A stretch of DNA of 64,000 bases, taken from a virus. The position numbers and the translations under genes were made by a program. The stretch covers positions 1-64,000 of the IMG/VR virus record IMGVR_UViG_3300009594_000003, one strand, 5' to 3'. Within the stretch, counting starts at the first letter, position 1. Each line of letters starts with the position of its first letter. This document shows positions 8,899 to 62,645 of this stretch, in pieces. The notes under the pieces are model-generated. The model was not told the DNA's origin. It made no database searches and worked only from the letters and a program-made list of their open reading frames with translations.

Positions 8899-9148
8899 AC
8901 AGAAGGTCGTTTCTAAAAAGTGTTGCTGGTCTACGGCGGCTGTCGCCGTACCTGTGGCTACTGTATCGGCATTAGCCAATCCAGTAGTGGTTGAGAACCG
9001 CAGACTGAAAGCAAGATGGTCGATGGAAGCTGCTCAGGACTTGCGTGCCATGCACAATCTAGCCGCCGAGGGAGAACTTTGCGAAATCATGTCCAAAGCA
9101 ATCAACGAAGAAATAGATCGAGAGATCATGCGGTCCCTAGCTGCCTAA
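8895..9148 (+). pseudogene. Tat-signal mini-protein carrying a T4 gp23 major-capsid motif (one frameshift)
   Basis: MNRRSFLKSVAGL from 8895, then a shifted frame AAVAVPVATVSALANP..RRLKARWSMEAAQDLRAMHNLAAEGEL.EIMS..I.EEIDREI. Confidence 0.65.
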
Positions 9149-35180: not shown

Positions 35181-35209
35181 TTGACACCTGAATTCAGGAT
35201 GTCTAGAAT
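35181..35209 (+). promoter_or_regulatory. Sigma70-like promoter
   Basis: TTGACA-N17-TAGAAT immediately after a hairpin at about 35149-35178. Confidence 0.65.
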
Positions 35210-35219
35210 TGCGACGGAG

Positions 35220-35704
35220 GTTGGGCGAGGCGTTTATGCCGGGTCTTTCGACCCTCCGACTCTGGGACACATATACGTCATCGACCAGACCGCACGGCTC
35301 TTTGACGAGTTGATCGTTGCCGTTGGCGACAACCCTGAAAAAAAGTTTTCTGAACGCAGCAGGATAGATATGCTGAAAGAGAGCATCCTGCTTTTGCAGC
35401 AACGTCTTCAAGGCGACCATCCCATCGAGAACATCCGAGTCGATCATTTCCGTAATCGGTTTCTCATTGACTACGCCAAAGAACAAAACGCAAAGTATAT
35501 CATTCGAGGAATCCGCAACTCCCAGGATTTCGAGTTTGAGAAAGCAATGCGGTATCTCAATGCCGACCTCACGCCAGGGATAACAACCCTGTTCATTGTC
35601 CCTCCACGAGAGTTGGCTGAAATCAGTTCCAGTGTTGTGAAGGGGGTGTGTGGACCGGAGGGCTGGCAGCGTGTTGTCCAGTCTATGGTCCCACCCCCGG
35701 TCTG
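35220..35704 (+). CDS. coaD: Phosphopantetheine adenylyltransferase; start uncertain and 3' end fused to unrelated sequence
   Basis: VYAGSFDPPTLGH, IIRGIR...DFEFE, ISSSVVK; the frame runs on into non-homologous sequence to 35861. Confidence 0.8.
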
Positions 35705-35990
35705 CTCAGCAAGTGCACCGTCAAAGACGTGGATGAGGAAGGCTAGCTCACTTGTGAGCCGAAGCCCGATAACGAAGTTCTCGCCGTTCAGATCGGCGAG
35801 GACCACGCCGGGCCGGACGGTTTCACCCTCATCGGTCAGTGGGGTGATGAACGAATCGTAGATGGAAAGCAGTGCTTCCTGCAATACGGTATTGCGGGGA
35901 CTACGTACTGCAAAGCGTTACTAACCCCAACGACCGATGGATCGTGAAGCGTGGCCTCTACTTCTCCGACTATCTTCTTGGCAGAAACAC
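35705..35990 (+). pseudogene. 3' fragment of an unrelated gene joined to coaD by a deletion
   Basis: alternate frame SKCTVKDVDEEG*LTCEPKPDNEV...QWG...QYG.AGDYVLQ; TAG at 35744-35746. Confidence 0.45.
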
Positions 35991-36082: not shown

Positions 36083-36820
36083 ATGAAAGGTATTATTCTT
36101 GCAGGAGGTCTCGGCACACGCCTGCACCCTTTGACAAGGGTTACGAACAAGTGTTTGTTGCCGATCTACAACAAGCCCATGATATACTACCCGATTCAGA
36201 ATCTAATCGATTCGGGTATCAACGACATTCTGCTCGTGTGTGGCGGTAATGCTGCCGGTGAATTCCTGAGAATCCTTGGGAATGGCGAAGAATTCGGCAT
36301 CAAGCATCTACACTACACATATCAGAAGGAAGCGAGCGGCATTGCCCACGCTCTGGGATTGGCGAGAGAATTCTGTAACGGTCAGCCAATGACCGTAATG
36401 CTAGCAGACAACATTCTAGAGAACCCCGTTCGGGAACAAGTGCAGGAATTTTCGGCCAACCCTGTCGGAGCGAAAATCTTCCTCACCAAAGTTGCAAACC
36501 CATCTGCCTACGGCGTAGTTGAAGCTGATACCGAGGGGAATATCCTCAGTATAGAAGAAAAACCGAAGTATCCAAAGTCGGACGAGATTGCAATTGGACT
36601 CTACATGTACGATAATACCGTCTGGGAGTTCATTGACCAGCTAAAGCCATCTGCTCGTGGCGAGCTAGAGATCACCGACTTGAACAACCACTTCCTCCGA
36701 AATGGCAGACTCAAGGCACATCGAATCAACGGATGGTGGGCTGATTGCGGAGAGAACTTCGACATGTATTTAGACGCTTCTAACAAAGCGAGGGAATTAT
36801 GGCATAAGAAGCGACGGTAA
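36083..36820 (+). CDS. rfbA: Glucose-1-phosphate thymidylyltransferase (short form)
   Basis: MKGIILAGG.GTRLHPLT...NK.LLP.Y.KPMIYYP, EEKP, PSARGELEITD. Confidence 0.9.
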   Translation: MKGIILAGGLGTRLHPLTRVTNKCLLPIYNKPMIYYPIQNLIDSGINDILLVCGGNAAGEFLRILGNGEEFGIKHLHYTYQKEASGIAHALGLAREFCNGQPMTVMLADNILENPVREQVQEFSANPVGAKIFLTKVANPSAYGVVEADTEGNILSIEEKPKYPKSDEIAIGLYMYDNTVWEFIDQLKPSARGELEITDLNNHFLRNGRLKAHRINGWWADCGENFDMYLDASNKARELWHKKRR

Positions 36821-36907: not shown

Positions 36908-38483
36908 ATGTTGAAATCCGAAGCCTTGCAGATGTTGAATGAAAAAGTGTGTTCTTGTACGAAGTGCAATGAGCTAGCTCGTACAAGAACAAACCGTTTT
37001 TAGGGAAGGCAACCCTCGCTTCTCTAATTAACCGTCCTTCTTGGACGGTTTCTTCTTTTCTGGCTATACAACTCCCGCATTAGGCACTTCAAGCCATACC
37101 TCTCCCTCTCCGCACATCTTTTTCTCGGTCAAATAATGTAAGCAGTGTCGTTTACTAGAAGAAGGAAAACCGGAGAATATGACAACATGCGTTAAAATAA
37201 TCAGGAAATCCAATGTTTCCGACCCGCTAGAACTGGTTAATCAAAACATGGTGATAGAAGATGGGTTGGAACATGGTAGGAGAAATAACCTTGAACGGCG
37301 TGCCTCGCTGGGATATGCTCGATGAGGCAAATAACCTGATTTCCAAATTAAAAACTACCAAGCCAAAATATGTTATTTACCGTGACCATGATAGAATAGG
37401 CTTCAAGAATCCCGCCGAAATCGGTTTCTTCATTACCTCCCTGAAACAACTGGATATGAAGATTATCACCGCCAACGACGAGCAGGTGGTCGATATGACC
37501 AACCTCGCTTCGACCATGCGGACGGTGCAAAACCAGTTAGCTTCATCAGCCGAGATTGAGAAGAAGGGATATAGGACACAAATTGCTCGCCGGAAGACTA
37601 TCGAGAAGAAGTCTAGTCCTGGCAAGATGTGTGTCTATGACTATGACTGGATAGTATATAACCGTGAAGGCACTTTCAAATATAAGGTCATCTACGAAGG
37701 TTACAAAAAATGCGAAGGACGGCACTGGACTGACCCACCGAAGAATACCAGAAGTCATGCCAATGCGGTGGAAAGAATATCCAGACGGCAAACGAGAAGC
37801 ATATCACGACCAGTGGGTTCAAAATAGTCACAACTGGATATTGCTCACGTCCGTTCCCATGATGGAAAAGGGCGACCGGAAGACTGAGATTGTTAATGTT
37901 GAGCGTGCCAAAGTTGTGAAAGATATATTTGACTTGGCTGACACTCCTAGTTACAAAACTCCTCACGAAATTGCCTGCATCTTCAACAATAAGGGCATCA
38001 AGAGCATGAGTAGGAAGTGGGATGCCAAGACAATAAAGTGCATCTTGTCAAACCCCATATACAAAGGGTATCCAGTCGATAATCAAACTTCAAAAGCAAA
38101 GACCGCTCGGTTGAATACTAATATAGTTACCGTGCCACCGACCAAGGAAGAACGAGCAGCAATACGCATTGTAGATATTGCACAATGGGACCGAGTGAAT
38201 AAATATCTGCGAGATAATCAGACAGGATATAAACATTTTCGCCGTGCTAATCTCGGTGACTTTTGGGCAAAGTGCTTTTTGTTCTGCGGTAACTGCCAAG
38301 ATATTTTTTACGTCGCCAATAGCACTAAATGGAAACCTTCCAAGAACTATCGCTGCGAGAAGTGTGGTGCCATAAAATCCCAATGCTAACGTCCTTTTTC
38401 TAGGTGAGGCTCCCGGTCAAAATGAAGACGGAACCGGAAGGCCCTTCGTCGGTAGGGCAGGTAGTTACTAGACGACATCATTT
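36908..38483 (+). pseudogene. Family-4 uracil-DNA glycosylase split by an insertion and truncated by an IS
   Basis: 5' part CTKCNELARTRT..VF.EGNP (36908-37015); resumes [33 protein letters not shown] (38379-38483). Confidence 0.8.
37016..38380 (+). mobile_element. About 1.37-kb element encoding a frameshifted large serine recombinase
   Basis: KIIRKS near 37195, DHDRIG, recombinase-domain IKCILSNPIYKG, IVD..QWDRV, CGNC and YRC Zn ribbon; AAYCC at both junctions. Confidence 0.7.
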
Positions 38484-39263: not shown

Positions 39264-39291
39264 CTTTACAACAGGTCGAGCGTGACTACAA
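39264..39291 (+). promoter_or_regulatory. Sigma70-like promoter of the pncA-vWA unit
   Basis: TTTACA-N16-TACAAT, then AGGAG RBS. Confidence 0.55.
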
Positions 39292-39336
39292 TACGGGTGT
39301 GGTCAGGACAACTCAACAAATAGGAGAGAATGAACC

Positions 39337-40212
39337 ATGCGAAAGGTCCATCTGGTCATCATCGACCCGCAGAATAGTTTTTGCAAAGTCGTTCCCCAAA
39401 CCGACCAGCAGAAACTCCACGACGGCGAACTGTGCGTCACCGGGGCCTGGGAGGATATGGAACGGGTCGGCGACATGATCCGACGCCTGGGCAAGAAGCT
39501 GACGCAGATTCACATCACCCTCGATTCCCACCACCAGTGGCACATCGCTCACCCCTGCTGGTTCAAAGACAGCAAGGGTCAGCCTCCGGCCCCCTTCACC
39601 ACCATGCGAGTAGAAAACGGGGTGATCATCGGTGCCCAATTCGATGCCAAGGGCGGTCTCCATGACGTGGGCGAGTATACGCCGACTCTCTTCGGCGAAA
39701 CCTACAAGTGGACCTACAAGTATCTCACCGAACTGGCTTTGGGCGGTCGCTACCCGCACGTCATCTGGCCGTATCACTGTTTAATCGGCACGCCCGGTCA
39801 CAACATCGTCGCCCCGCTGGAAGACGCCATCCTCGAATGGGAGCGTGTCGCTCGGCAGACCTGCGACAAGATCACCAAGGGGTCATGTCGTTTCGTGGAA
39901 CACTTCTCGGCAGTTCGTGCCGAAGTAACCTACGACCAAGACCCCAACACCCAACTCAACACCGACTTCGTACAAATGCTCGGCCACGAGGCCGACGAGG
40001 TTCTGATCTCCGGTGAGGCCCTATCTCACTGTGTCGCCAACACTTTCCGAGACGTTGCCAACGAACTCGGCGACGACTTCGTGAAGAAGTGTGTGCTGCT
40101 CGAAGACGCCTCCAGCAACGTCGGCAACTTCGAGAGCTACGGCAAGAAATTCGTCACCGAGATGAAGGCTCGTGGAATGCGAGTCTCTACCACCAAGAAA
40201 TACCTCAAGTAA
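39337..40212 (+). CDS. Nicotinamidase-like cysteine hydrolase (long isochorismatase-family form)
   Basis: IIDPQNSFC, TLDSH...HIAH, WP.HC..GT.G, KG, GEALSHCV. Confidence 0.82.
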   Translation: MRKVHLVIIDPQNSFCKVVPQTDQQKLHDGELCVTGAWEDMERVGDMIRRLGKKLTQIHITLDSHHQWHIAHPCWFKDSKGQPPAPFTTMRVENGVIIGAQFDAKGGLHDVGEYTPTLFGETYKWTYKYLTELALGGRYPHVIWPYHCLIGTPGHNIVAPLEDAILEWERVARQTCDKITKGSCRFVEHFSAVRAEVTYDQDPNTQLNTDFVQMLGHEADEVLISGEALSHCVANTFRDVANELGDDFVKKCVLLEDASSNVGNFESYGKKFVTEMKARGMRVSTTKKYLK

Positions 40213-40266
40213 CCGGACTGACTATTCGCCCCATAGTCTTTCCCATATACCAGAAAGGAACTAGTC

Positions 40267-40998
40267 ATGTCTGATGAACAGGCCCTTGAACAGCACAAGA
40301 TCGGGCACTTCGGTTTCAGTGCCGTCCACATTGGCAATCTCGGTGCGGCGGAATACACGCTCGTCACCATCGTCTGCGATCGCAGCGGCAGTACCAACGG
40401 CTTCCAAGCCGATATGGAAGCTGCTCTGAAGGAAGTCATCAAGGCGTGTCAGTTCTCGCCACGAGCCAACAACCTTCTGATCCGTGTCCTAACGTTCGAG
40501 GACTCGCACAGCGAATTCCACGGCTTCAAGCTGCTGGAGCAGATCAACCTCGATGACTACAACGGGGCATTGGCACCGGACGGCTACACCGCCTGTTACG
40601 ACGCCATGCTCGACGGCATCGAGGCAACCGACAACTTCGGCCAGCAGTTGGATGCCCAGGATTTCAACGTCAACGCTATCCTGTTCTTCATTACAGATGG
40701 CGATGACAACCGTTCCACGAACGGTACGACACAAATCAAGCAGGCACTCAGTAAGGCGGTGAAATCCGAGGCCCTGGAGAGCATCGTCACCATCCTGATC
40801 GGCGTGAACGTCATCGATCCGCACTTCAAGGAGCGGCTGGAGCAGGCTCACCAGCAGTGTGGTTTCACACAATTTATCGCTTTGGGCGATGCGAACAAGA
40901 AGACACTGGCAAAACTCGCTCAGTTCGTCAGCCAGTCGATCTCCTCGCAGTCTCAGGCGTTGGGAACAGGCGGTCCTTCCAAGAGCATCAACTTCTGA
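40267..40998 (+). CDS. vWA domain protein, TerY/YegL-like
   Basis: MIDAS DRSGS, G.TA.YDA, FFITDGDDN.S, FVSQSISSQS. Confidence 0.82.
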   Translation: MSDEQALEQHKIGHFGFSAVHIGNLGAAEYTLVTIVCDRSGSTNGFQADMEAALKEVIKACQFSPRANNLLIRVLTFEDSHSEFHGFKLLEQINLDDYNGALAPDGYTACYDAMLDGIEATDNFGQQLDAQDFNVNAILFFITDGDDNRSTNGTTQIKQALSKAVKSEALESIVTILIGVNVIDPHFKERLEQAHQQCGFTQFIALGDANKKTLAKLAQFVSQSISSQSQALGTGGPSKSINF

Positions 40999-41042
40999 AC
41001 TCTGTCCGTTTCGGAGTTGATTCTGACCACGCTGTTCGGAGC

Positions 41043-41079
41043 AAGACGCCCGGCCCGACATGTCGGGCCGGGCGTTCTT
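41043..41079 (+). terminator. Hairpin between vWA and pncB, followed by a second promoter
   Basis: ACGCCCGGCCCG-ACATGT-CGGGCCGGGCGT; TTTACA-N16-TACAAT at 41083-41110. Confidence 0.65.
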
Positions 41080-41131
41080 GTATTTACAGGCCAAAAACCA
41101 ACACTACAATGGTCGTGAAAGAAGGACCGCA

Positions 41132-42316
41132 ATGCTCAAATCGATTCTAGATACCGACCTGTATAAGCTGACGATGCAGCAGGCGGTATTGGAAAAATAT
41201 CCTGATGCCCACGCCGTCTATACTTTCACGAACCGAAGGAAGTCCGACAAGTTCCCTGATAAGTTCGAGGACTACTTGGTTTCCGGCCTCATGGCCTTAA
41301 CTAAGGTGGCGTTGTCGCCCGGTGAGGCAACATGGCTCGCCACGGCTTGCCCCTGGCTCAAGTCCTCCTACATCGAGTACCTCCGCAACTACCGTTTCAA
41401 CTCTTCGGAACTGTTTTTGAAAGTCAGGAATGACGATCTCACTATCACCATCAACGGACCTTGGCACCGAACTATTCTGTGGGAAGTGCCGATGATGGCG
41501 ATCATCAGTGAACTCTATTTTCAGCATGTAGTCACGGATTGGACGCACGAAGGGCAAGAAGAGAAGATCGCAAAGAAGGGTGAACTTTTTAAGGCAGAGC
41601 AGATACGTTGGTCGGACTTCGGTACTCGTCGCCGTCGCTCCTACAAATCACAAGATCGTGTCGTCAACATCTTCAAAGGCAACCCATTCTTCAGCGGCAC
41701 AAGCAACGTCCATCTAGCCCACAAGTACACTGTCCGGCCAATCGGAACTATGGCCCACGAATGGATTATGGGCCACGCCGCTCTCTGCGGTCTGCGGTAC
41801 GCCAACCGCTACGCCCTGCGTGCGTGGAACGATGTGTATCACGGCAACCTGGGGATTGCTCTTACCGACACCTACGGCACACCAGCTTTCTACAAGGACT
41901 TCGATGGCGTGTTAGCTCGTCTTTATGACGGCGTTCGGCATGACAGCGGTAGTCCCTTCGAGTTTGCCGATGCTGCGGTCGCTCATTACAAATCACTCAA
42001 CATCAACCCAGCCCACAAGACCATCGTGTTCAGTGATAGTCTGGACCCTCCATTGGCAGTTCAGCTTGCTCAGCGGTGCCGTCAACTAGGAATCAACGCT
42101 GTTTTTGGTATTGGCACGAACCTCACGAATGATTATGATAGTGGCAAGCCGCTGAATATAGTCATCAAACTGCGTTCACTGAACGGTGTCGAGGTCGTTA
42201 AACTGAGTGACGATCTCAACAAGGCGACCGGCGATAATGACGCCGTGCGTGTCGCCAAGTGGACGTTCTGCAATACACCGCTCGATAAGCCAGGAGTTCA
42301 GAGCTACAAGAGGTAA
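41132..42316 (+). CDS. pncB: Nicotinate phosphoribosyltransferase
   Basis: SILDTDLYKLTMQQA, DFGTRRR.S, GTSNV, GTMAHEW, ALTDTY, GVRHDSG, FSDSL, FGIGT.LTND, KLSD. Confidence 0.93.
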   Translation: MLKSILDTDLYKLTMQQAVLEKYPDAHAVYTFTNRRKSDKFPDKFEDYLVSGLMALTKVALSPGEATWLATACPWLKSSYIEYLRNYRFNSSELFLKVRNDDLTITINGPWHRTILWEVPMMAIISELYFQHVVTDWTHEGQEEKIAKKGELFKAEQIRWSDFGTRRRRSYKSQDRVVNIFKGNPFFSGTSNVHLAHKYTVRPIGTMAHEWIMGHAALCGLRYANRYALRAWNDVYHGNLGIALTDTYGTPAFYKDFDGVLARLYDGVRHDSGSPFEFADAAVAHYKSLNINPAHKTIVFSDSLDPPLAVQLAQRCRQLGINAVFGIGTNLTNDYDSGKPLNIVIKLRSLNGVEVVKLSDDLNKATGDNDAVRVAKWTFCNTPLDKPGVQSYKR

Positions 42317-42321
42317 CTGAT

Positions 42322-44331
42322 ATGAACGACTTTGGCCTCGCACGCATCACCGTTGTCAGCCCGGAAGTCAAGGTTGGCAACCCAACATTCAATGCTTTCC
42401 AGGTTGCCGATGCGGTCAAGAAAAACCCTGGATCGCAAATTTATCTTTTCCCTGAGTTGGGGATTACCGGCTATACATGTGCCGATCTCTTCAACTCGGC
42501 TACACTTCTCGAACGGACTGTGGATAGTCTAGTCTGGCTCAGCGAGCAGACGTATATGAATGACGCCTTCGTTGTGGTCGGTTTACCTGTCAAAGCAGAC
42601 GGCAGCCTCTACAACTGTGCCGCCGTTATTCACGCCGGGAAAATCCAGGGTCTCATCCCCAAGCAACATCTCCCGACGTACAAAGAATTCTATGAACGTC
42701 GTTGGTTTGCCCCAGCTACCGGCATGGAATCCAGGGCCATCAAGTTCGGGAATCTCTACATTCCTTTTGGTATCGATCTACTTTTCGAGGATGAAAACCA
42801 CCCCAACATCCTCATTGGAATCGAGATTTGCGAGGATGTGTGGACTGTCATCCCGCCCAGCAGCTATCAAGCCTTAGCCGGGGCAACGATCCTCCTCAAC
42901 CTCTCTGCCAGCAATGAAACAGTCGGCAAGGCCTCATATCGCCGTGATCTGGTTCTTAACCAATCTGGCCGCTGCATCGCTGCATATGCTTATGCCAGTT
43001 CTGGCTGGACAGAATCTACCACCGATCTAGTTTTTGGTGGTCACTGCATGATTGCCGAGAACGGTTTGATGCTTACGGAAACCCCCAAGTTTGAGCGGTC
43101 GGCAATGATTACTGCGGATGTTGATGTCGAAAAGCTGGTGCTGGAACGTGAACGCACTTCGAGCTTTGCTGACAACAAACGTCGGCAGGCTGTTCCGTTC
43201 CGCATCTTCCGAATAGCTCTGGAACAGCGGGGCGACGATAGGCTTATGCGGAGCGTGAATCCTCACCCCTTCGTTCCGCATAACACCAAAGAACTAGACG
43301 AACGCTGCAAGGAGATTTTTGGCATCCAGACTCGTGGCCTTGCAAAGCGAATCGAAACAGCCAATGTCAACCGCATGGTAATTGGTGTCTCCGGTGGTTT
43401 AGACTCTACGCTCGCTCTCTTGGTTGCAGCCAAAGCGTGTGATCTAGTTGGCAAGCCGCACAGTACCATCCTGGGGATTACCATGCCGGGTTTCGGCACA
43501 ACAAGCCGGACCAAGAACAACGCCATCAAGTTGATGGAAGCATTGGGCGTCGAGCAGAAAACCATCGACATTCGCCCGGCTACCCTTCATGCCCTGTGTG
43601 ATATACAACACAGGCCATTCGGGATTAAACTTGAAGCTCACTACCCGTATCCAGGCAGTGCGGTTGAAGCGTTGCAGGCACAACTTGCCAACCTGCCACA
43701 CGACAATCGCCACGATCTGGTGTTCGAGAACGTCCAGGCTAGACTCAGGACGTTCCTGTTGATGTCGCATGGTTTCGTCGTCGGCACAGGCGATCTATCG
43801 GAGCTTGCCCTGGGCTGGTGTACGTACAACGGCGATCACATGTCGATGTACAATCCCAACTGTAGCATCCCAAAAACACTGGTGAAGTTCCTTGTGGAAT
43901 ATGTTGCAGAAAACGAAGTGAGAAACTTTGTTAACAGCGACAACACTCTGGTGGACATCTGCAAGACAACAATTTCTCCCGAACTGTTGCCAGCGGGTGC
44001 GGATGGCAACATTCTACAGTCCACCGAGGATGTTGTCGGCCCCTACGAACTGATTGACTTCTTCATGTTCTGTATGATCCGGTGCGGATACGGGCCGAAG
44101 AAGACTTTGTACCTCGCCGAACACGCTGAGTTCAATACAAAGTACACACGAGACCAACTGAAAAATTGGTTGAAGGCTTTCTATTTCCGGTTCTTCTCCT
44201 CGCAATTCAAGCGGTCTTGTGTGCCTGACGGCCCGAAGGTCGGGTCGGTTTCTCTGTCGCCGAGAGGCGACTGGCGTATGCCCAGCGATGCTGATGTATC
44301 AATTTGGGTCAGCGAGGTTGACGAAGCATGA
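42322..44331 (+). CDS. nadE: Glutamine-dependent NAD+ synthetase
   Basis: nitrilase domain FPEL..TGY, PK, EICED; synthetase SGGLDS, ENVQAR, GTGDLSE, QFKRSC.PDGPKVG. Confidence 0.95.
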   Translation: MNDFGLARITVVSPEVKVGNPTFNAFQVADAVKKNPGSQIYLFPELGITGYTCADLFNSATLLERTVDSLVWLSEQTYMNDAFVVVGLPVKADGSLYNCAAVIHAGKIQGLIPKQHLPTYKEFYERRWFAPATGMESRAIKFGNLYIPFGIDLLFEDENHPNILIGIEICEDVWTVIPPSSYQALAGATILLNLSASNETVGKASYRRDLVLNQSGRCIAAYAYASSGWTESTTDLVFGGHCMIAENGLMLTETPKFERSAMITADVDVEKLVLERERTSSFADNKRRQAVPFRIFRIALEQRGDDRLMRSVNPHPFVPHNTKELDERCKEIFGIQTRGLAKRIETANVNRMVIGVSGGLDSTLALLVAAKACDLVGKPHSTILGITMPGFGTTSRTKNNAIKLMEALGVEQKTIDIRPATLHALCDIQHRPFGIKLEAHYPYPGSAVEALQAQLANLPHDNRHDLVFENVQARLRTFLLMSHGFVVGTGDLSELALGWCTYNGDHMSMYNPNCSIPKTLVKFLVEYVAENEVRNFVNSDNTLVDICKTTISPELLPAGADGNILQSTEDVVGPYELIDFFMFCMIRCGYGPKKTLYLAEHAEFNTKYTRDQLKNWLKAFYFRFFSSQFKRSCVPDGPKVGSVSLSPRGDWRMPSDADVSIWVSEVDEA

Positions 44332-45179
44332 ACACCGACTCATTCTATGCCAAAGGTTCTACCCACCGTGAGAACCAGGACTACGCCACTCACGGCGAGA
44401 GAGAGGGGCAACCATTCGCTATCATTTCAGATGGATGTTCGTCTGCTCCACGCACTGATTTCGGGGCACGGATTCTGGTGCAAGCCGCCGTGCAATATCT
44501 CGGCGTGGCTGGATACAATGATGATTCATTTAGCCATAGTACGATCAATACGGCCCGTATTTGGTCACATGCCCTGGGCCTGCCTGATGATTGCCTCTGT
44601 GCTACGCTGCTCATGGCTATAGTTGCAAACGTAGATGTAGGAATGCCGCACGTTGACCAGCATATGTACAAGGTCTTCATCAGTGGCGATGGCTTTGTGG
44701 TTGCTCGGCACAAGGACCGCATGGAAATCCACGAATATAAATTTGCTCGTGGTGCCCCATGCTACCTTCGCTACAGCCTGGACCCCAAGATGTCCAAGGA
44801 CTATTGGGCAAAGTTCGGCGATGAGGTCACACATCGCATCTACATGATCGACAACAACGGAAAATCCGACTACCAAAAGGAGACGAAGAAATATCCTGCC
44901 GCTCCGTTCTTCTTTAAGTTGGAGTTTCCCGTCTCCGACTACCTTTGGGTCGCAGTGGTCAGCGACGGCGGCGACTCTTTCTTGGAAACGGTGGACCACG
45001 GCACCGGCCTAGAACCAACCGATGTTCCGGCCAGTACCGTACTATTTGAGCTATTCAACTTCAAGAATTATCAAGGCGAGTTCGTCCAGCAACGGTGCAG
45101 TAAGGCTTTCAAGGAGTTCGGCAAGAAACGCTGGCAGAACGCCGACGACATTGCTGTTGGGGTGATTGCGAGGGACTGA
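44328..45179 (+). CDS. PP2C-like phosphatase, TerY-P/YegK-like
   Basis: G.TH..NQD, ISDGCSS...D.GA, ATLL, GDG, VSDG, DDI. Confidence 0.82.
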   Translation: MNTDSFYAKGSTHRENQDYATHGEREGQPFAIISDGCSSAPRTDFGARILVQAAVQYLGVAGYNDDSFSHSTINTARIWSHALGLPDDCLCATLLMAIVANVDVGMPHVDQHMYKVFISGDGFVVARHKDRMEIHEYKFARGAPCYLRYSLDPKMSKDYWAKFGDEVTHRIYMIDNNGKSDYQKETKKYPAAPFFFKLEFPVSDYLWVAVVSDGGDSFLETVDHGTGLEPTDVPASTVLFELFNFKNYQGEFVQQRCSKAFKEFGKKRWQNADDIAVGVIARD

Positions 45180-45180
45180 T

Positions 45181-45798
45181 ATAAGAATCGGACTTCTAGG
45201 CGAGGCCTTTGACCCAATTACCTGTGCCCACATGGACATGGCTAGAGTTGGACTAGAAGTGTTCGATGAAGTCTAGCTCATGCCATGTAATACACATCCT
45301 TGGGACAAAGAAATGGCCCACGGCTCAGACCGTCTTCATATGATTGAGTTGGCGACTCAACACACCCCCAAAATAAAACCGTGCCCCTACGAACTAGAAA
45401 TGGCACCAAGTTCGTACACCTACGATGTGGTGTGGAGCATGAGACATAAGGTGCGGTTCATGCCGATTGAATTCAGCATCATCGTTGGCATGGACAATGC
45501 CAACAAAATCAAGGAGTGGCATCGCTGGCAAGAACTGATCGAAATGATCCCTTTCCTTGTAGTAAAGAGAAGGGGCATCGAACAACAAACTGATTAGTTC
45601 CTGAAAGCTCCTCATATGTTCAAGGACATCGGGACGGTGACGGGCACACTGCAAACCAACTGCCTAGCCGTACCAATTAGTTCAACACTGGTACGGCGAA
45701 CCATCAGAGAGGGCGGCGATGCCCGCCCATTTCTGCACTTGGACGTGTGGAACTACATCGACAAGAAGGGACTCTACAAGAAAGGTCCAGATGAATAA
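45181..45798 (+). pseudogene. nadD: Nicotinate-nucleotide adenylyltransferase with ATA start and two in-frame TAGs
   Basis: single frame IRIGLLGEAFDPIT.AH...FDEV*LMP...R..M..LA...YT...IIVGMD...I.EW..W...TD*F...ISSTLVR...V..YI....LY. Confidence 0.82.
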
Positions 45799-46609
45799 AT
45801 GTTGCGTCTACATGGTGAATCAACATCCGCTGTACATGAACATGGCTTGTAACAGCATAGCCATGTTAAGGAAACATTCGGCCATTCCAGTTCGTGTACT
45901 GCTGATTACCGATTTCGCACGCACCACCTTCTCTAATACACGGAACTACCCCGGCTTGGAACTTGATGTGTCCGATGATGCTGTGAAACGGATGTCGGAC
46001 AGGTTGGTTGTTAAGTGCGAGGAAATGGGAGCGGAAGTAAAGGTACTGAGTCCACACGCCGCCGAAACAGACTACATTCATTGCAACCAATCCTACATGG
46101 CTACGGAATGCCCAGAGGAACTGGTCATGAAAATGGATGCCGACACCTTCCTCTTCGGCGACATCGAGCCTGTTTTCAACGCATACGATGGATACGATGT
46201 AGTCGCCCTGGAAGCGGACTGGTTCAAGAAAGAAAAAGAATGGAAGCCTGAATGGTTCGGGAATCAGACGCCACTCTCTACAGCGGTGATTCTGTTCCGA
46301 AACGAAACGGCCAAACGCTGGGGAGAATTCTTGCCAGGGATGTGTCGGGCGTATGCCGAGGGCGACTCTGACGCCGCTATCTGGGCACGAAACAGAAAAA
46401 TCTTGTATTTGCGGGACGAACTTTCCTTAACACCATTCGTCATCTGCAATACACTGAAATGGAGGCTGTTCAGGGAAGAACACTGTTGCCAGATCAGTGC
46501 CCCGGAGTTTTGGAAAAACATCATTGCACACGCCTTCGGCTACAATTGGCTGAAGGCTTATCAGATGCTCACAGGGAGCAAAGACTTGCCGTTGAGGGCC
46601 GCTCAATGA
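45791..46609 (+). CDS. Glycosyltransferase-like protein (GT-A fold, GT8-like)
   Basis: Y..MA.NSI..LR, MDADT DxD motif, DE..L. Confidence 0.6.
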   Translation: MNKCCVYMVNQHPLYMNMACNSIAMLRKHSAIPVRVLLITDFARTTFSNTRNYPGLELDVSDDAVKRMSDRLVVKCEEMGAEVKVLSPHAAETDYIHCNQSYMATECPEELVMKMDADTFLFGDIEPVFNAYDGYDVVALEADWFKKEKEWKPEWFGNQTPLSTAVILFRNETAKRWGEFLPGMCRAYAEGDSDAAIWARNRKILYLRDELSLTPFVICNTLKWRLFREEHCCQISAPEFWKNIIAHAFGYNWLKAYQMLTGSKDLPLRAAQ

Positions 46610-48345
46610 AGCTCTACTTGAAGGGAAGTGGCACCGAAATCAACCTGGATCAGCGGGACTTCATTGCCAAAGGCGGCGAGGGCAGCATCTTCGGCAAGGG
46701 GGCGATTGCCTACAAAGTCTATGACGACCCGCACAAGATGATCCCCGTTGCCAAGATCGGCGAACTAGCCGTCCTCGATCATCCGAACATCATCAAGCCA
46801 GACGTTGTGTTGCTAGACGGCAAGAACAAGCCCATCGGCTACACAATGCGATTGCTGAACAACACTCACGTCCTCGTCTCTTTGTTTACCAAAGCCTTCC
46901 GCTTGCGTAATGGTATTGACGACGCCATGATGCTCCATCTGGTCAGGGAACTTCAAAAACTCGTGGCGTTCGTTCACAGCAAACGTATCCTCATCGTTGA
47001 CCTGAACGAGATGAACTTCCTCACGGATGCCGGGTTCAAGGACATCTACGGCATAGATGTCAATTCATACCAAACGCCCGGCTTTCCAGCGACAGCAATT
47101 ATGGATACGATTCGTGACCGCCACATGACGGGCCACAATTTCAACCAGAACACCGACTGGTTTAGCTGGGCCGTTGTTGCCTTTCAAATGCTGATTGGCA
47201 TTCATCCGTATAAGGGATCGCATCCCGACTTTGAGACGATGCCCAAGGACGAGCGACTGAATGCTCGTATGACTAGAAACGTCTCGGTCTTTCACAAGAA
47301 TGCTACATGGCCCAAGGTGTGTCAGCCATTCGATGTCATCCCGCCAACGCTCAAGGGCTGGTTCGTTGACGTGTTTGAGCGTGGACATCGTGGCAACCCG
47401 CCTCCCAATTACGCCGCCGTGGTTGTGGCGGTCGCTACTGCGATTCAAGATATTGTCGGCACCGACCTGTTCGACATTCAGGAACTACAAACCTTCGCCG
47501 AGGAAATCGTGCGGGTATGCTCTACGGCCAACACCACGGTAGTTTTCACCAAAGATAATTTAGTCATTGGCAAGAAGCTCTACCCGCTGCCGTCGCCAAC
47601 GTGCAAGATCGCTTTTGCCCCGAAGACCGAGAACCCCATCGCCTTCTGGATTGACAACGGCCTCAAGGCGTTAGATGTAGTTTCCAACAAGCCGTTGTCC
47701 GTCCCAGCAACCGGCACCGCCCTCCTAGAATGCGACGGTCGTGTGTATGTCCAGAATGGGACATACCTCATGGAGTTTATGATCGGCGAGTTCCCGACCG
47801 GCGTGAAGATTCTGCCAAAACAGGTCGGCAAAGTTATGGATGTGCTGGGTGCCACGCAAATCTACGACGGCGTGATCTTGCAAAACGTCCTGGGAACTTT
47901 CTACGCCACGATCTTCCCGGTGAGCGGCCAGAGCCATCAGGTCAAGCTCACCGAGTTGTCCAAGTACCAGATCATCGACGTCAAGTACGAGAATGGTGTC
48001 CTGGTGGTAGTTGGCACAAAGCTAGTCTCGAAGCGGTCAATGGCAACCAAGAGCAAGTACGACCGTTTCGTGTTCCGCATGTCGCCGGACTACAAGAATT
48101 ACGACTTCTGGACCGCCGAGGACGTAACCTATACCGGAATCAACTTCACCGTCGCCGATCACGGCGTAGCGGTACTGATGAACGAGGAGGAAAAACTGGA
48201 AGCCTTCTCGGAGACGAAAGGATCATCGACTACGCCCAAGAGATTCGATGATGATGCCCTTGACACCGACATGAAGTTGTGTCACCGTGGCAGCAAGATT
48301 CTGTTCGCCAAGGGGAAGAAACTGTATTCCATTTCCATGAAGTAG
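46606..48345 (+). CDS. Ser/Thr kinase, TerY-P/YegI-like, with beta-rich C-terminal domain
   Basis: GGEG.I, AYKVY, H...I.I.DLN..NFL, ID..S.Q, TDWFSWAVV.FQML.GIHPYKG. Confidence 0.85.
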   Translation: MKLYLKGSGTEINLDQRDFIAKGGEGSIFGKGAIAYKVYDDPHKMIPVAKIGELAVLDHPNIIKPDVVLLDGKNKPIGYTMRLLNNTHVLVSLFTKAFRLRNGIDDAMMLHLVRELQKLVAFVHSKRILIVDLNEMNFLTDAGFKDIYGIDVNSYQTPGFPATAIMDTIRDRHMTGHNFNQNTDWFSWAVVAFQMLIGIHPYKGSHPDFETMPKDERLNARMTRNVSVFHKNATWPKVCQPFDVIPPTLKGWFVDVFERGHRGNPPPNYAAVVVAVATAIQDIVGTDLFDIQELQTFAEEIVRVCSTANTTVVFTKDNLVIGKKLYPLPSPTCKIAFAPKTENPIAFWIDNGLKALDVVSNKPLSVPATGTALLECDGRVYVQNGTYLMEFMIGEFPTGVKILPKQVGKVMDVLGATQIYDGVILQNVLGTFYATIFPVSGQSHQVKLTELSKYQIIDVKYENGVLVVVGTKLVSKRSMATKSKYDRFVFRMSPDYKNYDFWTAEDVTYTGINFTVADHGVAVLMNEEEKLEAFSETKGSSTTPKRFDDDALDTDMKLCHRGSKILFAKGKKLYSISMK

Positions 48346-48354
48346 GAGACTCAC

Positions 48355-48841
48355 ATGCACCCATCAGAGTACATCGAATTTCTCAAAACCGGCAATGGTG
48401 CCAAGGTTGACGGTCTGTGTGGCCGGATTATCCGGGGCAAGACGCCGTAGTGCTTCTCTCGCCTCTCCGATGATCCGAACCGCAAGGTAGTCATGCTCAC
48501 CGATGCGGAGGACTTGCAATCGTTGCTGGGAAAGAATAGCTATCAGATGCTCATTACCATCGGTCATCATCCCGACCACATCAACCAGTGTCTCAGCGAA
48601 GGCAAGAGCTACAAGATCGTGGTGTTCCCGGCCAGCAGTGCCCTCGAAGGCACTTGGGATAGTCGTGAAGCTCGGCTCCCAGGTTTACCCCGACGTGGCC
48701 CCAGAATTCGGACGGCTCCCATTCTCGGTCATCGAACAACTGGCCGGTTATCACTTCAAGGATGTCGATGATCCGACACATCCGAAGTTCATGTCGCACG
48801 AGCGGTTCCAAGCCCTGATCGTTCAGCCTTCACACCCCTAA
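48355..48841 (+). pseudogene. Decayed gene at the end of the kinase operon
   Basis: AGGAG RBS; MHPSEYIEFLKTG...GRIIRGKTP* then continues in frame; later frameshift; hairpin at 48840-48867. Confidence 0.55.
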
Positions 48842-48910
48842 CGCCCCGGCCAAGGGCCGGGGCGTTTCCGTTTACATAAGCTGTTTCTGTACTAGAATGA
48901 TAAATAGAGC

Positions 48911-49597
48911 ATGATCGATTTCGGCTTCAAGGAGTACCTTCAACTACAAGAGATGGCGGCGAGAAAAAGCCTCGCTAGAAGTCTTGAGAAGTGGATGGAC
49001 AACATCGACAAGCCGGTTGCTGTTTTAACTGCGTTCCGAAGCGAACATGACCTGGAAACGAATCGAAAGAGAAACGAGGAACTGGTCAAGGACTTGACGG
49101 CTGCCGGTTTGAGCCATTACCCTGTAACAGGACAAGGCCAGGAGATCAAGCGATGGGCATTCCTTTTCCGAGTAATCGAACCAACGAAAGAAGAGTCCTT
49201 TGTGGTCCAGCCACGAGGCGAAATGAGCGATACGGTATTCGTTAGCACTATCCAGGGGTTGATGAACACCTACAACCAGGATTTCGTGGCAATGAAATTA
49301 CCAAGCAGTCCTGATGCTTTTCTACTTGGGAGAAATGGGAATAGAGAACCATTGGGTCGAAGTGCCCATCCAAGAAGAGAAGAAAACCCGTTTTACTCAG
49401 AATTGCTCAAAGGAGTAAGAACGCCGCCCGAACAAATGAGCGGATGGGAAAGAACGGGAGAAAGAAGTCTGGTACGTCGATTCATCAACTGGCTGAGGGG
49501 CAGGTCTCATATGAACCACCCAGTCCCAGCCGATGAAAGAGGCGGCAGAAGATTCGTAGTGGGCGATGCACCCAAACACCCACAGGGAAATGCGTAA
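48911..49597 (+). CDS. CTS-like protein with DUF3293-like domain
   Basis: MIDFGFKEYLQLQE; LTAFR....N..RN..L..DL, EESFVV; TAAATA box 4 nt upstream. Confidence 0.65.
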   Translation: MIDFGFKEYLQLQEMAARKSLARSLEKWMDNIDKPVAVLTAFRSEHDLETNRKRNEELVKDLTAAGLSHYPVTGQGQEIKRWAFLFRVIEPTKEESFVVQPRGEMSDTVFVSTIQGLMNTYNQDFVAMKLPSSPDAFLLGRNGNREPLGRSAHPRREENPFYSELLKGVRTPPEQMSGWERTGERSLVRRFINWLRGRSHMNHPVPADERGGRRFVVGDAPKHPQGNA

Positions 49598-59758: not shown

Positions 59759-60870
59759 ATGAACAAACTGGTGAACATCAGCCAGGCAGCCGAGATGCTT
59801 GGCGTCTCCACCAAAATACTATGCCTATGGGATGGTGAAGGTAAGGTAGAGGCAGTTAGAACGGCAGACTTCGGGGTATACGAGCAGTCACGGTGTTACA
59901 ATAGAATGAATGGACAGTGGGCAGAGTAAGACCTACGAGCAAGAGTTAGTTAATGACATGATTTCGCCTATGTCGTCCTTCTCCAGCAAGATTTACGGCA
60001 AGCATTCAGCCGAGAACCGCAAATGCCGTAAATTGGAAAAGTTAGCAGCGTTGAGACAGTTGCCGATGGGGGCGGCTGTGCCTGTAGATGTGGAAGAAAT
60101 ACATGAACCAACCGGCATACTGGAAACTGGACAGCAAGATCAAGGCGAGGCAGAAGAATGTGGCAACGTACCAGAAATTAACCAGGCGGAACTCATTACC
60201 TACTGACCGTGGCTACTGAACACTCTGCAACTACCAACCGCCCTACGAAAGCGGCACGAAGATTGTGCAACTTGAAGAACTTGGGCACTGGTTGGTGCTA
60301 TGTATGCTCACCCTGACAAGTTCACTCATATTCCAATCGTGGATGAGTGGGTAGTGATTGCCGAAGAACTTGCTGCTAAGAGCGGTGGCGTTCTCCCTTA
60401 CGCTCGCTGGTTGCAGGCAGAGAATGGATGAGGTTGCTAAAGAAGTAATACAGCAACCAGATGTGAAAATGGTCGTAATGGAAGACTTGAAAAAGTTAAA
60501 CCACAAGATCAAATTCAGACGCCGCCTGAGTAAAAATATGCGGCAGTCGCTCGGTACATGGGCGTATCGTTACTGGCTGAACCGGATACAAATGGCAACT
60601 GAGGATAACCGTGTTAGTCTTCGTCATGTTCCACCGGCATATACCAGTCAGCGATGCAGTGCATGTGGTCATATTGAGCGGAGAAACCGAAATGGTGAGA
60701 AGTTCTTGTGCAGGAAGTGTGCTACGCCTGCAATGCAGATGTGAATGCTGCCAAGAACATTGAGTTCCGGTGTACCAGCCGACCTTACGGTGCGGCTTCC
60801 AAACCGAGAAACAGGGATTTTTGTCTAAGGTAAGATTTTCCAAGTTTTGAAGAACGATTGCGACGGTGTG
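59759..60870 (+). mobile_element. Decayed IS607-family element (TnpA plus TnpB remnants)
   Basis: MerR-like ISQAAEMLGVS...L..W...GK...VRT; EQELVNDM....SFSSKIYG; TnpB VVMEDL, VPPAYTSQRCSACGH, AD.NAA.NI. Confidence 0.78.
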
Positions 60871-61363: not shown

Positions 61364-61774
61364 ATGCCGCTGAGAGAAAAATACCGTGGGAAAAAATACA
61401 TTGACATGAAACCATCTAGAGAAGAGTTGGAAAAGTACCAAAATAATCTGGCTGGAGGAGCCGGGGCGTTTGGGGTCAGTGAGCGGACCATCAGAAGATG
61501 GTTAGACGCCGAGGGTCTTTATCGACCTACGGAAGGGTATGGTCCTAACAAGCTGACTGAAAAACAGGTAGAAGAGATTAGACGCCTACATATACAGAAA
61601 AAGTACACGCAAGCTCAGCTAGGCAAGAGATTCGGCGTTACCCAAGCAACGATAGGCAGAATACTTAATAACATCTATCACAAGAAAACCGACCTGAAAC
61701 TTGGCGGGGCTGCCATCGTCAGTTTCCATGAAAAGTTTCCACCCACCGAACTGTGCCACTCTCAGACCGCATGA
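61364..61774 (+). CDS. Double-HTH DNA-binding protein
   Basis: A.AFGVSERTIRRWL and KLTEKQV.EIR....TQAQL..RFGVTQATIGRIL. Confidence 0.7.
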   Translation: MPLREKYRGKKYIDMKPSREELEKYQNNLAGGAGAFGVSERTIRRWLDAEGLYRPTEGYGPNKLTEKQVEEIRRLHIQKKYTQAQLGKRFGVTQATIGRILNNIYHKKTDLKLGGAAIVSFHEKFPPTELCHSQTA

Positions 61775-62645
61775 AGACGCTGTGCGTCACCGGCCCAACG
61801 CTGGTGTAGCGAACTCCCTTCAACATACTACCATCGGTGATCCCTGTGGCTGCAAAAACACATTCGCCTTTGACTAATCCGTTGGTGTCATAAACCGGAC
61901 CTTCTGGTTTCCAGGCATCGTCTTGCAAAGCTACTTGGGCCTGGAACTCACCACCGAGGCACTTGATAGCCGCTGCCGCCAAGACTGCTTCGGGTGCTCC
62001 GCCGATGCCAAAATATATATCAACTCCACTATTGGGCAAACAAGTAGCAATAGCTCCAGATACGTCACAGTCCTGAATCAGTTTGATGCGGACACCTAGC
62101 TGTCTCAGTTCCTTGATGAATTGCTCGTGACGTGGCCTATTCAAAACACACACCATCAGATCAACCAGCTTTTTATTGGCTGCTGTGGCTACGTGTTGCA
62201 CAATGTCTAGTAGTGCCCACCAGAGTTTCACATCAGTCTTGAGGTTGGTTTTTATCTTCTTTCCGAAAGCCAGCTTCTTCATGTAGAAATGCGGTGTAGT
62301 AAACATGGCGTCTACAGGAGCCATCGCCAGGGTAGCAATGGCCTCTGGACCAGAAGTAACTGTGGGCGTGGTGCCCTCGATGGGATCAACGGCAATCTCA
62401 TAATCAGCGGACATCCAAGATTGCTCTGTGCCCAACCGCTCTCCCTGGAACAACCCATAGCTTTTATCCTTCTCCCCTTCACCGATGCGAATGATACCAC
62501 TGAACTTTATCAAGTTCAGTCGGTTCCTCATTGCATCCGTTGCCGCTTTATCTGCAAGTTCCTTGTTGCCGCTGCCGACCCAATGTGAAGCTGCTATAGC
62601 AGCCGCTTCGGTCACTCTAACTAGATCAAGGCTGATATTCTTCAT
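61719..62645 (-). CDS. glpX: Class II fructose-1,6-bisphosphatase
   Basis: LVRVTEAAAIAA, IGEGEKD, AVDPIEGT, RPRH, GIGGAPE.VLAAAA, FAATGITDG. Confidence 0.92.
   Translation of the reverse strand: MKNISLDLVRVTEAAAIAASHWVGSGNKELADKAATDAMRNRLNLIKFSGIIRIGEGEKDKSYGLFQGERLGTEQSWMSADYEIAVDPIEGTTPTVTSGPEAIATLAMAPVDAMFTTPHFYMKKLAFGKKIKTNLKTDVKLWWALLDIVQHVATAANKKLVDLMVCVLNRPRHEQFIKELRQLGVRIKLIQDCDVSGAIATCLPNSGVDIYFGIGGAPEAVLAAAAIKCLGGEFQAQVALQDDAWKPEGPVYDTNGLVKGECVFAATGITDGSMLKGVRYTSVGPVTHSVFMRSESGTVRWVETFHGN

Follow-up and report, generated by a model that had tools for sequence, protein, structure and literature searches.

A nicotinamidase, vWA, phosphatase, and kinase tetrad interleaved with NAD+ salvage genes in a phage contig

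INTRODUCTION

Why would a phage carry genes for the synthesis of nicotinamide adenine dinucleotide (NAD+) in between genes for a protein kinase, a protein phosphatase, and a von Willebrand factor A (vWA) protein? The question is raised by a gene cluster in IMG/VR virus record IMGVR_UViG_3300009594_000003. The stretch that was analyzed, which we call the window, covered positions 1 to 64,000 of that record and corresponded to the initial 64 kb of one contig of 85,651 bp. Depletion of NAD+ is a common bacterial defense, and reconstitution of NAD+ by phages is a recently described countermeasure. An earlier note on this DNA had proposed that the cluster was a third phage route for rebuilding NAD+ from nicotinamide, that it was tied to a phosphorylation switch, and that its alternating gene order reflected one functional unit.

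The analysis described here indicated that the conserved unit was a tetrad, whose genes encode a nicotinamidase of a long type, a vWA protein resembling YegL, a PP2C phosphatase resembling PphC, and a kinase that resembles YegI and is fused to a beta-propeller. Our best explanation, to which we assign a probability of roughly 0.6, is that the cluster is a phage copy of this tetrad and that it gives phospho-regulated entry of nicotinamide to deamidating (Preiss-Handler) NAD salvage.

RESULTS

The hydrolase of the tetrad is a predicted long nicotinamidase

The four genes of the tetrad were located in the window as follows.

39337..40212, + strand: PncA-type long nicotinamidase, 291 amino acids (aa), identified by its conserved active site, fold, and profile
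40267..40998, + strand: vWA protein, YegL/TerY-like, with an intact metal ion-dependent adhesion site (MIDAS) and a Ser-rich C-terminal tail
44328..45179, + strand: PP2C Ser/Thr phosphatase, PphC-like (Pfam PP2C_2, 36.7 bits)
46606..48345, + strand: YegI-like Ser/Thr kinase (residues 1-270) with a C-terminal beta-propeller (residues 289-579); its start overlaps the preceding stop (ATGA)

The nicotinamidase family comprised 2,204 database relatives at an E value of 1e-3 or lower, and residue conservation was read from an alignment of 36 sequences. In that alignment, the catalytic triad (D10, K181, and C232) was invariant or at least 90% conserved, the metal ligands D63, H65, and H147 were invariant or nearly so, and the motif WPxHCLIGTxGH was conserved. 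The segments carrying K181 and C232 paired, in a profile match, with the region of yeast Pnc1 around K122 and C167. Furthermore, the LDSHH and WPxHCLIGTxGH segments aligned to RDWH and WPVHC of 2h0r and 3pl1.

The predicted structure pointed in the same direction. The AlphaFold2 (AF2) model had a pLDDT (predicted local distance difference test) score of 94.3, and the structures ranked 1 to 10 in a Foldseek search of the PDB were all nicotinamidases, with target-normalized template modeling (TM) scores of 0.52 to 0.82 (nine of the ten were between 0.77 and 0.82). When the family profile was compared with the PDB, all four matches were nicotinamidases, and the metal, Lys, and Cys segments were aligned in them. 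The model also contained an extra subdomain of about 65 aa (residues 73-140), which consisted of three beta-hairpin strands and a helix. The earlier note had called the hydrolase nicotinamidase-like, and this assignment was borne out: the triad and metal ligands were kept, and only nicotinamidases matched by fold and profile. Thus, as judged from residues, profile, and model, the hydrolase belongs to the nicotinamidases as a long variant. Its gene had pncB as the immediate neighbor in Desulfoluna, Desulfococcus, Marinilabiliaceae, and several phages, which fits nicotinate as the product.

Some relatives carried a second isochorismatase/nicotinamidase-like gene, either inside the cassette or immediately behind the kinase gene (locus L023, 17602-18168; L036, 11171-12022; L044, 15472-16386).

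The three signaling proteins are related to YegL, PphC, and YegI of Escherichia coli

The MIDAS residues of the vWA protein (D38, S40, S42, T108, and D144) were conserved in 43 sequences. In an hhalign comparison, the protein matched E. coli YegL with a probability of 94.9% and an E value of 4.5e-8, and the match included the C-terminal tail. This Ser-rich tail was itself conserved (consensus SxSISSQS...F), aligned with the YegL tail, and is, on the basis of its sequence, a candidate phospho-acceptor for the kinase. The phosphatase kept four Asp-Gly/Asp-Asp metal motifs, which were invariant in 39 sequences, and it matched E. coli PphC (probability of 84.6%, E value of 6.8e-6) over the N-terminal 112 columns only. 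For the kinase, the G-loop, K37, D132, N137, and D151 were conserved in 42 sequences, and the match to E. coli YegI was strong (probability of 99.4%, E value of 2.3e-21). Judging by these residues, the kinase, phosphatase, and vWA protein all look functional.

The AF2 model of the kinase had a pLDDT of 90.9, and residues 289-579 were all beta. Its Foldseek matches included LRRK2 (kinase and WD40) and the propellers of G-beta, WDR5, Nup133, and Vps18. The earlier note had likened the three genes to the TerY-P/YegLKI triad. The part of the claim that stood was the homology of all three proteins; the part that did not concerned the kinase C-terminus, which was a beta-propeller and not a zinc ribbon or oligonucleotide/oligosaccharide-binding (OB) fold. 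PADLOC returned no TerY-P match for the window proteins and none for E. coli YegL, PphC, and YegI either, so PADLOC was uninformative on TerY-P membership. A complex prediction for the nicotinamidase and the vWA protein, which was run without controls, scored 0.00.

The tetrad is conserved in phages and in bacteria

A profile scan of IMG/VR yielded 50 phage loci, 42 of which were non-redundant. All four tetrad genes were present in 37 of the 42, and in 36 their order was nicotinamidase, vWA, PP2C, and kinase. The same four genes in the same order were found in four GenBank phage records, contiguous in two and interrupted in two. The interruptions were a GT92 gene and a sulfotransferase gene (both in LR756511) and ORFs of unknown function, and the four records contained no pncB, nadD, or GT-A gene.

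For bacteria, prokaryotic genomes were scanned at one genome per species; this returned 80 loci, and 52 of these were assessable in that they had at least 5 kb of downstream sequence. The full tetrad was found in 9 of the 52. In 10 others, among the Myxococcota loci L061-L096, vWA and kinase genes were present with no PP2C gene detected, and the gaps between the two were about 3 to 450 bp by tblastn coordinates; with no PP2C gene in between, it seems that the phosphatase is dispensable or encoded elsewhere in those loci. The remaining group of interest had no triad gene at all (27/52), and 12 of these 27 loci had pncB or nadE beside the nicotinamidase gene. Specifically, the long nicotinamidase gene was directly beside pncB in Desulfoluna, Desulfococcus, and relatives, and the arrangement in Marinilabiliaceae and Odoribacter was nicotinamidase-pncB-nadE.

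The bacterial hosts of the full tetrad were mostly Myxococcota and Bacteroidota, including the isolate Paraliomyxa miuraensis. Among the Myxococcota records with the tetrad were a contig of 6.9 Mb and a chromosome of 9.4 Mb. The cassette is therefore not confined to phages: it is also found in bacterial chromosomes, where it lies next to nrtR.

pncB, nadE, and a nadD pseudogene are interleaved with the tetrad

Further features of the cluster were placed between or ahead of the tetrad genes.

39265..39292, + strand: promoter-like TTTACA-N16-TACAAT site, 45 bp upstream of the nicotinamidase start
41041..41081, + strand: GC-rich terminator-like hairpin in the vWA-pncB gap, with a stem at 41045-41076
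41083..41110, + strand: second copy of the promoter-like TTTACA-N16-TACAAT site, ahead of pncB
41132..42316, + strand: PncB, nicotinate phosphoribosyltransferase (PRTase), 394 aa (TIGR01514, 422.8 bits versus a cut-off of 269.55)
42322..44331, + strand: glutamine-dependent NAD+ synthetase NadE, 669 aa (NF002730, 838.9 bits versus a cut-off of 473)
45166..45798 (alternative start at 45181), + strand: nadD pseudogene with two in-frame TAG stops
45791..46609, + strand: 272-aa protein whose start overlaps the preceding stop
48493..48841, + strand: frameshifted small ORF in two overlapping frames, family unassigned, no Pfam match

All of the genes that the earlier note had named were present on the + strand in the order that it had given, and both of its promoter-like sites were confirmed. 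The motif TTTACA-N15-18-TACAAT had three matches in the window compared with zero expected from 100 shuffles, and a relaxed motif ending in TA[CG]AAT had five matches on the + strand of the contig and none on the - strand. A near-identical site was located 76 bp upstream of the nicotinamidase ortholog in the nearest relative, L139. The hairpin in the vWA-pncB gap folded at -36.3 kcal/mol (z score of -5.28), a value that none of 200 shuffles equaled. Because the hairpin and the second promoter-like site precede it, the ATG at 41132, and not position 41060, was taken as the pncB start.

Read from this corrected start, PncB was matched by Pfam NAPRTase and NAPRTase_N. Its PHROG match to "nicotinamide PRTase" was weak (60.4 bits), and the NCBIfam assignment was nicotinate PRTase. 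NadE was matched by Pfam CN_hydrolase and NAD_synthase. In the case of nadD, the earlier report that the gene was broken was confirmed: the pseudogene was a single continuous frame with TAG codons at 45274-45276 and 45595-45597 and no frameshift, it lacked an ATG start, and its HxGH motif read TCAH. The remnant aligned end to end with the intact NadD proteins of relative loci L011, L014, L028, L045, and L056.

Two other accounts of the nadD stops were set aside. Stop-codon recoding was ruled out, as no tRNA genes were detected on the contig and TAG terminated 30 of the 116 called ORFs. Reading through TAG shifted the coding density only from 0.861 to 0.874, and there was almost no gain from reading through any stop codon; the standard genetic code is in use. 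As for an assembly error, both stops were also present in a second assembly, a Logan contig with zero differences over 44900-46100. The agreement excludes a slip of the assembler, but it is weak support, as the one public run that was found is probably the source run of the window and hence not independent.

No Prs/Adps and no intact Nmnat were detected among the ORFs scanned, and the gene sets of the phage NAD+ reconstitution pathways NARP1 (Adps and Namat) and NARP2 (Nampt and Nmnat) were not matched by the window. A cytidylyltransferase-fold protein encoded just upstream of the cluster (35181-35861) scored as CoaD and, by its score, was no substitute for NadD.

The 272-aa protein had no Pfam match. 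Its nearest ESM Atlas clusters were GT8/nucleotide-diphospho-sugar transferases, a lead only, and it is possibly a GT-A/GT8-like glycosyltransferase. No homologs of this protein were found in the phage or bacterial relative loci examined, and only the window's version of the cluster has the gene. Similarly, the frameshifted ORF at 48493-48841 had no homolog in the phage relatives examined and lies outside the conserved cassette.

Linkage of the cassette to NAD genes extends beyond the window

According to the text available from PMC2330246, the nrtR product represses genes of NAD metabolism. Annotation of the flanks of five bacterial loci revealed, immediately next to the cassette or to pncB-nicotinamidase, a regulator with NUDIX and NrtR_WHD domains. 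By tblastn (E value of 1e-10 or lower), nrtR was present in 10 of the 42 phage loci and in 30 of the 52 assessable bacterial loci. In addition, pncB, nadE, or nadD was found within 10 kb in 13 of the 42 phage loci.

NAD genes inside the cassette were seen only in the window and in phage loci L009 and L010 (pncB), L011 (nadE), L012 (pncB and nadE), and L140 (pncB), and they occupied the same junctions. In L011, an intact nadD was also located between the PP2C and kinase genes. The PncB of the window was closest to the PncB proteins at the same position (53% and 50% identity), and the sampled bacterial PncB proteins were 40 to 44% identical. The NadE of the window was most like that of L011 (46%); the NadE of L012 was only 23% identical, which suggests separate recruitment. 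In a large protein database, the nearest PncB proteins were 81% and 71% identical, followed by proteins with 61% identity or less. Among the 119 listed non-self PncB matches, 17 had a longest contig equal in size to that of a listed nicotinamidase relative, a hint of co-residence only.

The idea that the NAD genes were a very recent insertion unique to the window was dropped, as L009-L012, L036, L041, and L140 carry such genes at the same or adjacent positions. Whether the triad and the NAD genes are linked in relatives was examined as a point on which the proposal could have failed, and linkage was found in part of the loci, with NAD genes recurring beside the triad. The link to NAD metabolism belongs to the cassette itself and extends past the window.

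The contig is a piece of a huge phage

The contig was that of a myovirus, with genes for a tail sheath, three tail-tube paralogs, a baseplate hub, a head-tail adaptor, and a late sigma factor. The three tail-tube paralogs (phrog_4542) were in a row after the tail sheath gene (contig 68487-70310, + strand). Identical nicotinamidase and PncB proteins were recorded on a 463,644-bp contig, and the phage records with relatives of the cluster were only huge phages of 462 to 595 kb plus one 6.5-kb fragment. These two observations indicate that the DNA is a piece of a huge phage. A megablast search with the cluster against 50,697 phage records produced no match, and relatives were detectable at the protein level only.

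The set of metabolic genes on the contig was unusually rich. It included genes for a member of the inosine monophosphate dehydrogenase (IMPDH)/GMP-reductase family, a class III aminotransferase, glutamate dehydrogenase, GlpX fructose-1,6-bisphosphatase, CTP synthase, and an M14 carboxypeptidase. These and other features outside the cluster are listed below.

Window 43-1107, 7627-8898, 11705-12955, and 61719-62645 (- strand); contig 83378-84991 (- strand) and 72323-73759: the metabolic set just named
Contig 73704-74180, - strand: PAS-domain protein gene
1225-1443, - strand, and 60358-60744, + strand: short ORFs with only a Cas12f1-like/TnpB TNB zinc-finger domain (62 and 38 bits)
5119-5709, - strand: LAGLIDADG homing endonuclease gene (68.5 bits)
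8954-9148, + strand: lone 64-aa ORF with a 62-bit match to the Gp23 major capsid protein model (positions 141-194 of 376)
35181-35861, + strand: CoaD/pantetheine-phosphate adenylyltransferase-like gene, just upstream of the cluster (TIGR01510, 144 bits, above the cut-off)
36083-36820, + strand: RmlA-like glucose-1-phosphate thymidylyltransferase gene, just upstream of the cluster
37261-38389, + strand: serine-recombinase-type integrase, present as a C-terminal fragment only (Pfam Recombinase, phrog_95), after rmlA and before the nicotinamidase gene
48871-49597, + strand: SAM (S-adenosylmethionine)-lyase-family gene directly after the cluster (Pfam PF23780, 31 bits), with its own TTTACA-N16-TAGAAT site

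The two TNB zinc-finger ORFs are probably remnants of TnpB-type mobile elements. The Gp23-like ORF sits between the aminotransferase gene and an unknown gene. We rejected the possibility that it was part of a split capsid gene: the neighboring + strand ORFs had no capsid match, and the ORF thus looks like a stray remnant of a capsid gene. The rmlA gene of the nearest relative, L139 (region 661-2505), was 94% identical and about 1.1 kb from the nicotinamidase gene, compared with about 2.5 kb in the window. This larger spacing places the integrase fragment in extra DNA. The SAM-lyase-family protein may be an anti-restriction protein.

DISCUSSION

A proposed function for the cluster

The picture that we favor is one in which the tetrad regulates the first step of deamidating NAD salvage. 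In bacteria, the cassette would stand at the entry of nicotinamide (Preiss-Handler) salvage, beside nrtR. In this phage lineage, pncB and nadE would have been placed between the vWA and PP2C genes, behind their own hairpin and promoter, and nadD between the PP2C and kinase genes, where it has since decayed. The route would then run from nicotinamide to nicotinate (nicotinamidase), to nicotinate mononucleotide (NaMN; PncB), to nicotinate adenine dinucleotide (NaAD; host NadD), and to NAD+ (NadE). A host NadD would be needed for the NaAD step because the phage nadD is dead.

With regard to control, one component of the cassette, most likely either the Ser-rich vWA tail or the nicotinamidase, would have its phosphorylation state set by the kinase together with the phosphatase. 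With its MIDAS intact, the vWA protein may read that state, and a signal sensed via the beta-propeller may switch on the deamidation of nicotinamide. In the infected cell, the predicted outcome is a greater flux from nicotinamide to NAD+, whether the NAD+ had been cleaved by host NADase defenses or consumed by the phage. What the analysis establishes is the identity of the genes, the conservation of active-site residues, the folds, the homology to YegL, PphC, and YegI, the conserved gene order, and the linkage to nrtR, pncB, and nadE; we infer the substrate of the hydrolase, the direction of phosphorylation, the gating of deamidation, the sensing by the propeller, and any anti-defense effect on NADases.

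Several observations weigh against this explanation. The nicotinamidase scored below the Pfam Isochorismatase PF00857 cut-off (26.3 versus 27 bits) and far below the NCBIfam PncA NF008623 cut-off (18.7 versus 174 bits), although these curated cut-offs were missed because the insertion of about 65 aa splits the match. The phage-encoded Preiss-Handler route is incomplete because nadD is dead, and nrtR had no tblastn match within the 85,651 bp. Among the relatives, 29 of the 42 phage loci had no pncB, nadE, or nadD nearby. Two of these relatives, L007 and L008, have nicotinamidases that are 79 to 81% identical to that of the window and carry the tetrad with no NAD genes within 10 kb; searches of their vWA-PP2C gaps at E values up to 10 found no pncB or nadE remnants. 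The two are the window's sister loci, with a support of 100, in a quick tree from which 8 duplicate loci and rows that were shorter than 230 aa or contained stops were omitted. The deeper nodes of that tree are weakly supported, and the NAD genes may have been either lost or gained. Finally, 7 of 55 ORFs in the cassette gaps of relatives had a Pfam match, and one of the 7 was NAD related. Most of the other inserted cargo in relatives is unrelated or unknown, which indicates that the cassette tolerates arbitrary insertions. The claim of one functional unit stood in part: the nicotinamidase, vWA, PP2C, and kinase genes are conserved together, whereas pncB, nadE, and nadD are optional and are missing in the two closest relatives.

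Those last findings are the ones that would be expected if the NAD and signaling genes were mere neighbors in a variable region where a huge phage gathers auxiliary genes, the interleaving being a product of insertion-tolerant junctions. Unrelated cargo at the cassette junctions of relatives, the closest relatives without NAD genes, the separate hairpin and promoter ahead of pncB-nadE, and a contig with an abundance of varied metabolic genes and remnants of genes all fit such an account. We nevertheless regard it as quite improbable, since the nicotinamidase, which is itself an enzyme of NAD salvage, is fixed in the cassette, and since nrtR, pncB, and nadE recur in distant phage and bacterial lineages in varied arrangements and with non-orthologous NadE proteins. 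It could also be that the link to NAD is only loose: the hydrolase would have a nicotinamidase fold and act on another amide (nicotinamide mononucleotide, nicotinamide riboside, NAD+, or a non-pyridine compound accommodated by the extra subdomain). Some other metabolite would then be under the control of the tetrad, to which the NAD genes would have a loose pathway relation. The conserved insertion of about 65 aa separates the metal-binding segment from the WPxHC motif, the scores fall under the curated PncA and Isochorismatase cut-offs, and the identity to solved nicotinamidases is 14 to 18%. However, every catalytic and metal-binding residue of PncA is retained, including WPxHC, and pncB is the immediate neighbor in many bacteria and phages, as a nicotinate product would predict. 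For these reasons, a different substrate seems improbable to us.

The homology of the triad to YegL, PphC, and YegI also permits a reading in which the tetrad is a TerY-P-type conflict system for defense or superinfection exclusion. The kinase switch would release the nicotinamidase as an effector that removes the nicotinamide needed by the NARP1 Namat or NARP2 Nampt of competitors, and the owner would still use nicotinate via PncB and NadE. NrtR responds to ADP-ribose, and if it senses that molecule here, NrtR control would induce the cassette upon cleavage of NAD+. A Gp17 superinfection-exclusion gene is located within the cassette of one relative (L027). As far as the NARP preprint text available goes, both NARP pathways require nicotinamide, and TerY-P-like modules have been reported as stand-alone anti-phage systems (cited from Gao et al. 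2020 in the available text of PMC11090510). On the other hand, the C-terminus of the kinase is not the zinc ribbon or OB fold of TerY-P. In the five annotated loci, the bacterial copies are surrounded by housekeeping and NAD genes (nrtR and ATP synthase genes) and not by recognizable defense islands; the enzyme adjoins pncB in triad-less bacteria, which is an ordinary salvage context; and no defense family was matched except by generic kinase models. We consider a conflict system of this kind unlikely.

The cluster shows the deamidating route in a huge phage and, of greater weight, a link in both bacteria and phages of the enzyme that opens this route to a kinase, a phosphatase, and a vWA protein. 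If phospho-regulated entry of nicotinamide to salvage is the function of the tetrad, this would be the first Ser/Thr phospho-control of bacterial NAD salvage. For YegL-PphC-YegI-type triads, the cassette supplies a specific pathway to consider and a handful of possible substrates, which makes the question of their output directly testable. A bolder version is that the tetrad is a phosphorylation-gated valve on free nicotinamide in the NAD+ conflict between bacteria and huge phages, and that here, with PncB, NadE, and host NadD, it forms a third, deamidating, signal-controlled pathway of NAD+ reconstitution that beats NADase defenses. The valve would then be the first physiological output of YegL-PphC-YegI/TerY-P triads. 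We offer this version tentatively, as a possibility that we still find doubtful.

Comparison with known systems

Full-text literature searches on TerY-P, jumbo-phage NAD, phage NAD reconstitution, and NrtR, whose scope included the main text of PMC11662467, returned no description of the tetrad. A PncA-like gene has been noted in phage G, with no context given (PMC12484599), and the phage NAD systems in the available portions of PMC7824862 and PMC9503650 are without a nicotinamidase-vWA-PP2C-kinase unit.

Phage reconstitution of NAD+ has been described for NARP1 (Adps/Namat) and NARP2 (Nampt/Nmnat), both of which use nicotinamide directly (bioRxiv 10.1101/2024.02.11.579819, in the text available). 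The earlier note's statement that these pathways use other enzymes held up: "Preiss," "nicotinic acid," "NadE," and "deamid" occur 0 times in the available preprint text. The cluster resembles them in that phage enzymes would rebuild NAD+ from nicotinamide. Unlike them, the route in the window would pass via nicotinate, NaMN, and NaAD, would use glutamine and two ATP-dependent steps, and is joined to a signaling triad; its anti-defense activity is putative.

A closer parallel in gene content is the Preiss-Handler cluster pncB-nadD-nadE of jumbo phages, with Kuafu_71 as an example (PMC11662467, main text). As a new gene inventory, the "third phage route" of the earlier note did not survive this comparison, given that the jumbo-phage cluster had already been published in that main text. 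Both cases involve a huge phage and a deamidating NAD+ route that is physically clustered. In contrast to the published clusters, for which the main text has 0 mentions of "kinase" and no nicotinamidase-vWA-PP2C-kinase unit, nadD is dead in the window and the NAD genes are interleaved with the cassette.

The signaling half of the cluster has its counterparts in TerY-P and YegL-PphC-YegI. TerY-P kinases have a C-terminal zinc ribbon in the classical form or an OB fold in the defense form (PMC11090510, in the part of the text that describes Anantharaman et al. 2012 and Gao et al. 2020). YegI carries membrane segments, and the substrates and purpose of the E. coli YegL-PphC-YegI system are not yet known (10.1101/819920). 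The cassette shares with the E. coli system the same three domains, co-oriented neighboring genes, an IDxDS[FY]Q kinase motif, and a Ser-rich vWA tail, and the E. coli K-12 triad likewise tolerates an inserted gene, yegJ. The cassette differs from TerY-P and YegI in that the kinase C-terminus is a soluble beta-propeller, not a zinc ribbon, an OB fold, or membrane segments. It also differs from TerY-P and YegLKI in that a nicotinamidase is a fixed fourth member and in its setting, which is NAD metabolism in place of tellurite resistance or restriction systems.

For the salvage half, the nearest known arrangement is the NrtR-type operon, of which nrtR-pncA-pncB-nadD-nadE of Clostridium acetobutylicum is an example (Rodionov et al. 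2008, PMC2330246, in the text available). As in those operons, pncA, pncB, nadD, and nadE genes are clustered as one deamidating route, and nrtR adjoins the cassette in many relatives. Unlike the NrtR operons, which have no protein kinase, phosphatase, or vWA partner in the available text of PMC2330246, the cluster has a long nicotinamidase that travels with three signaling genes. The window further differs from them in having no nrtR in 85,651 bp and a nadD that is a pseudogene. Taken together, these comparisons indicate that the cluster combines two known kinds of system, NrtR-type nicotinamide salvage and a YegLKI/TerY-P-type triad, in a huge phage with extra Preiss-Handler genes.

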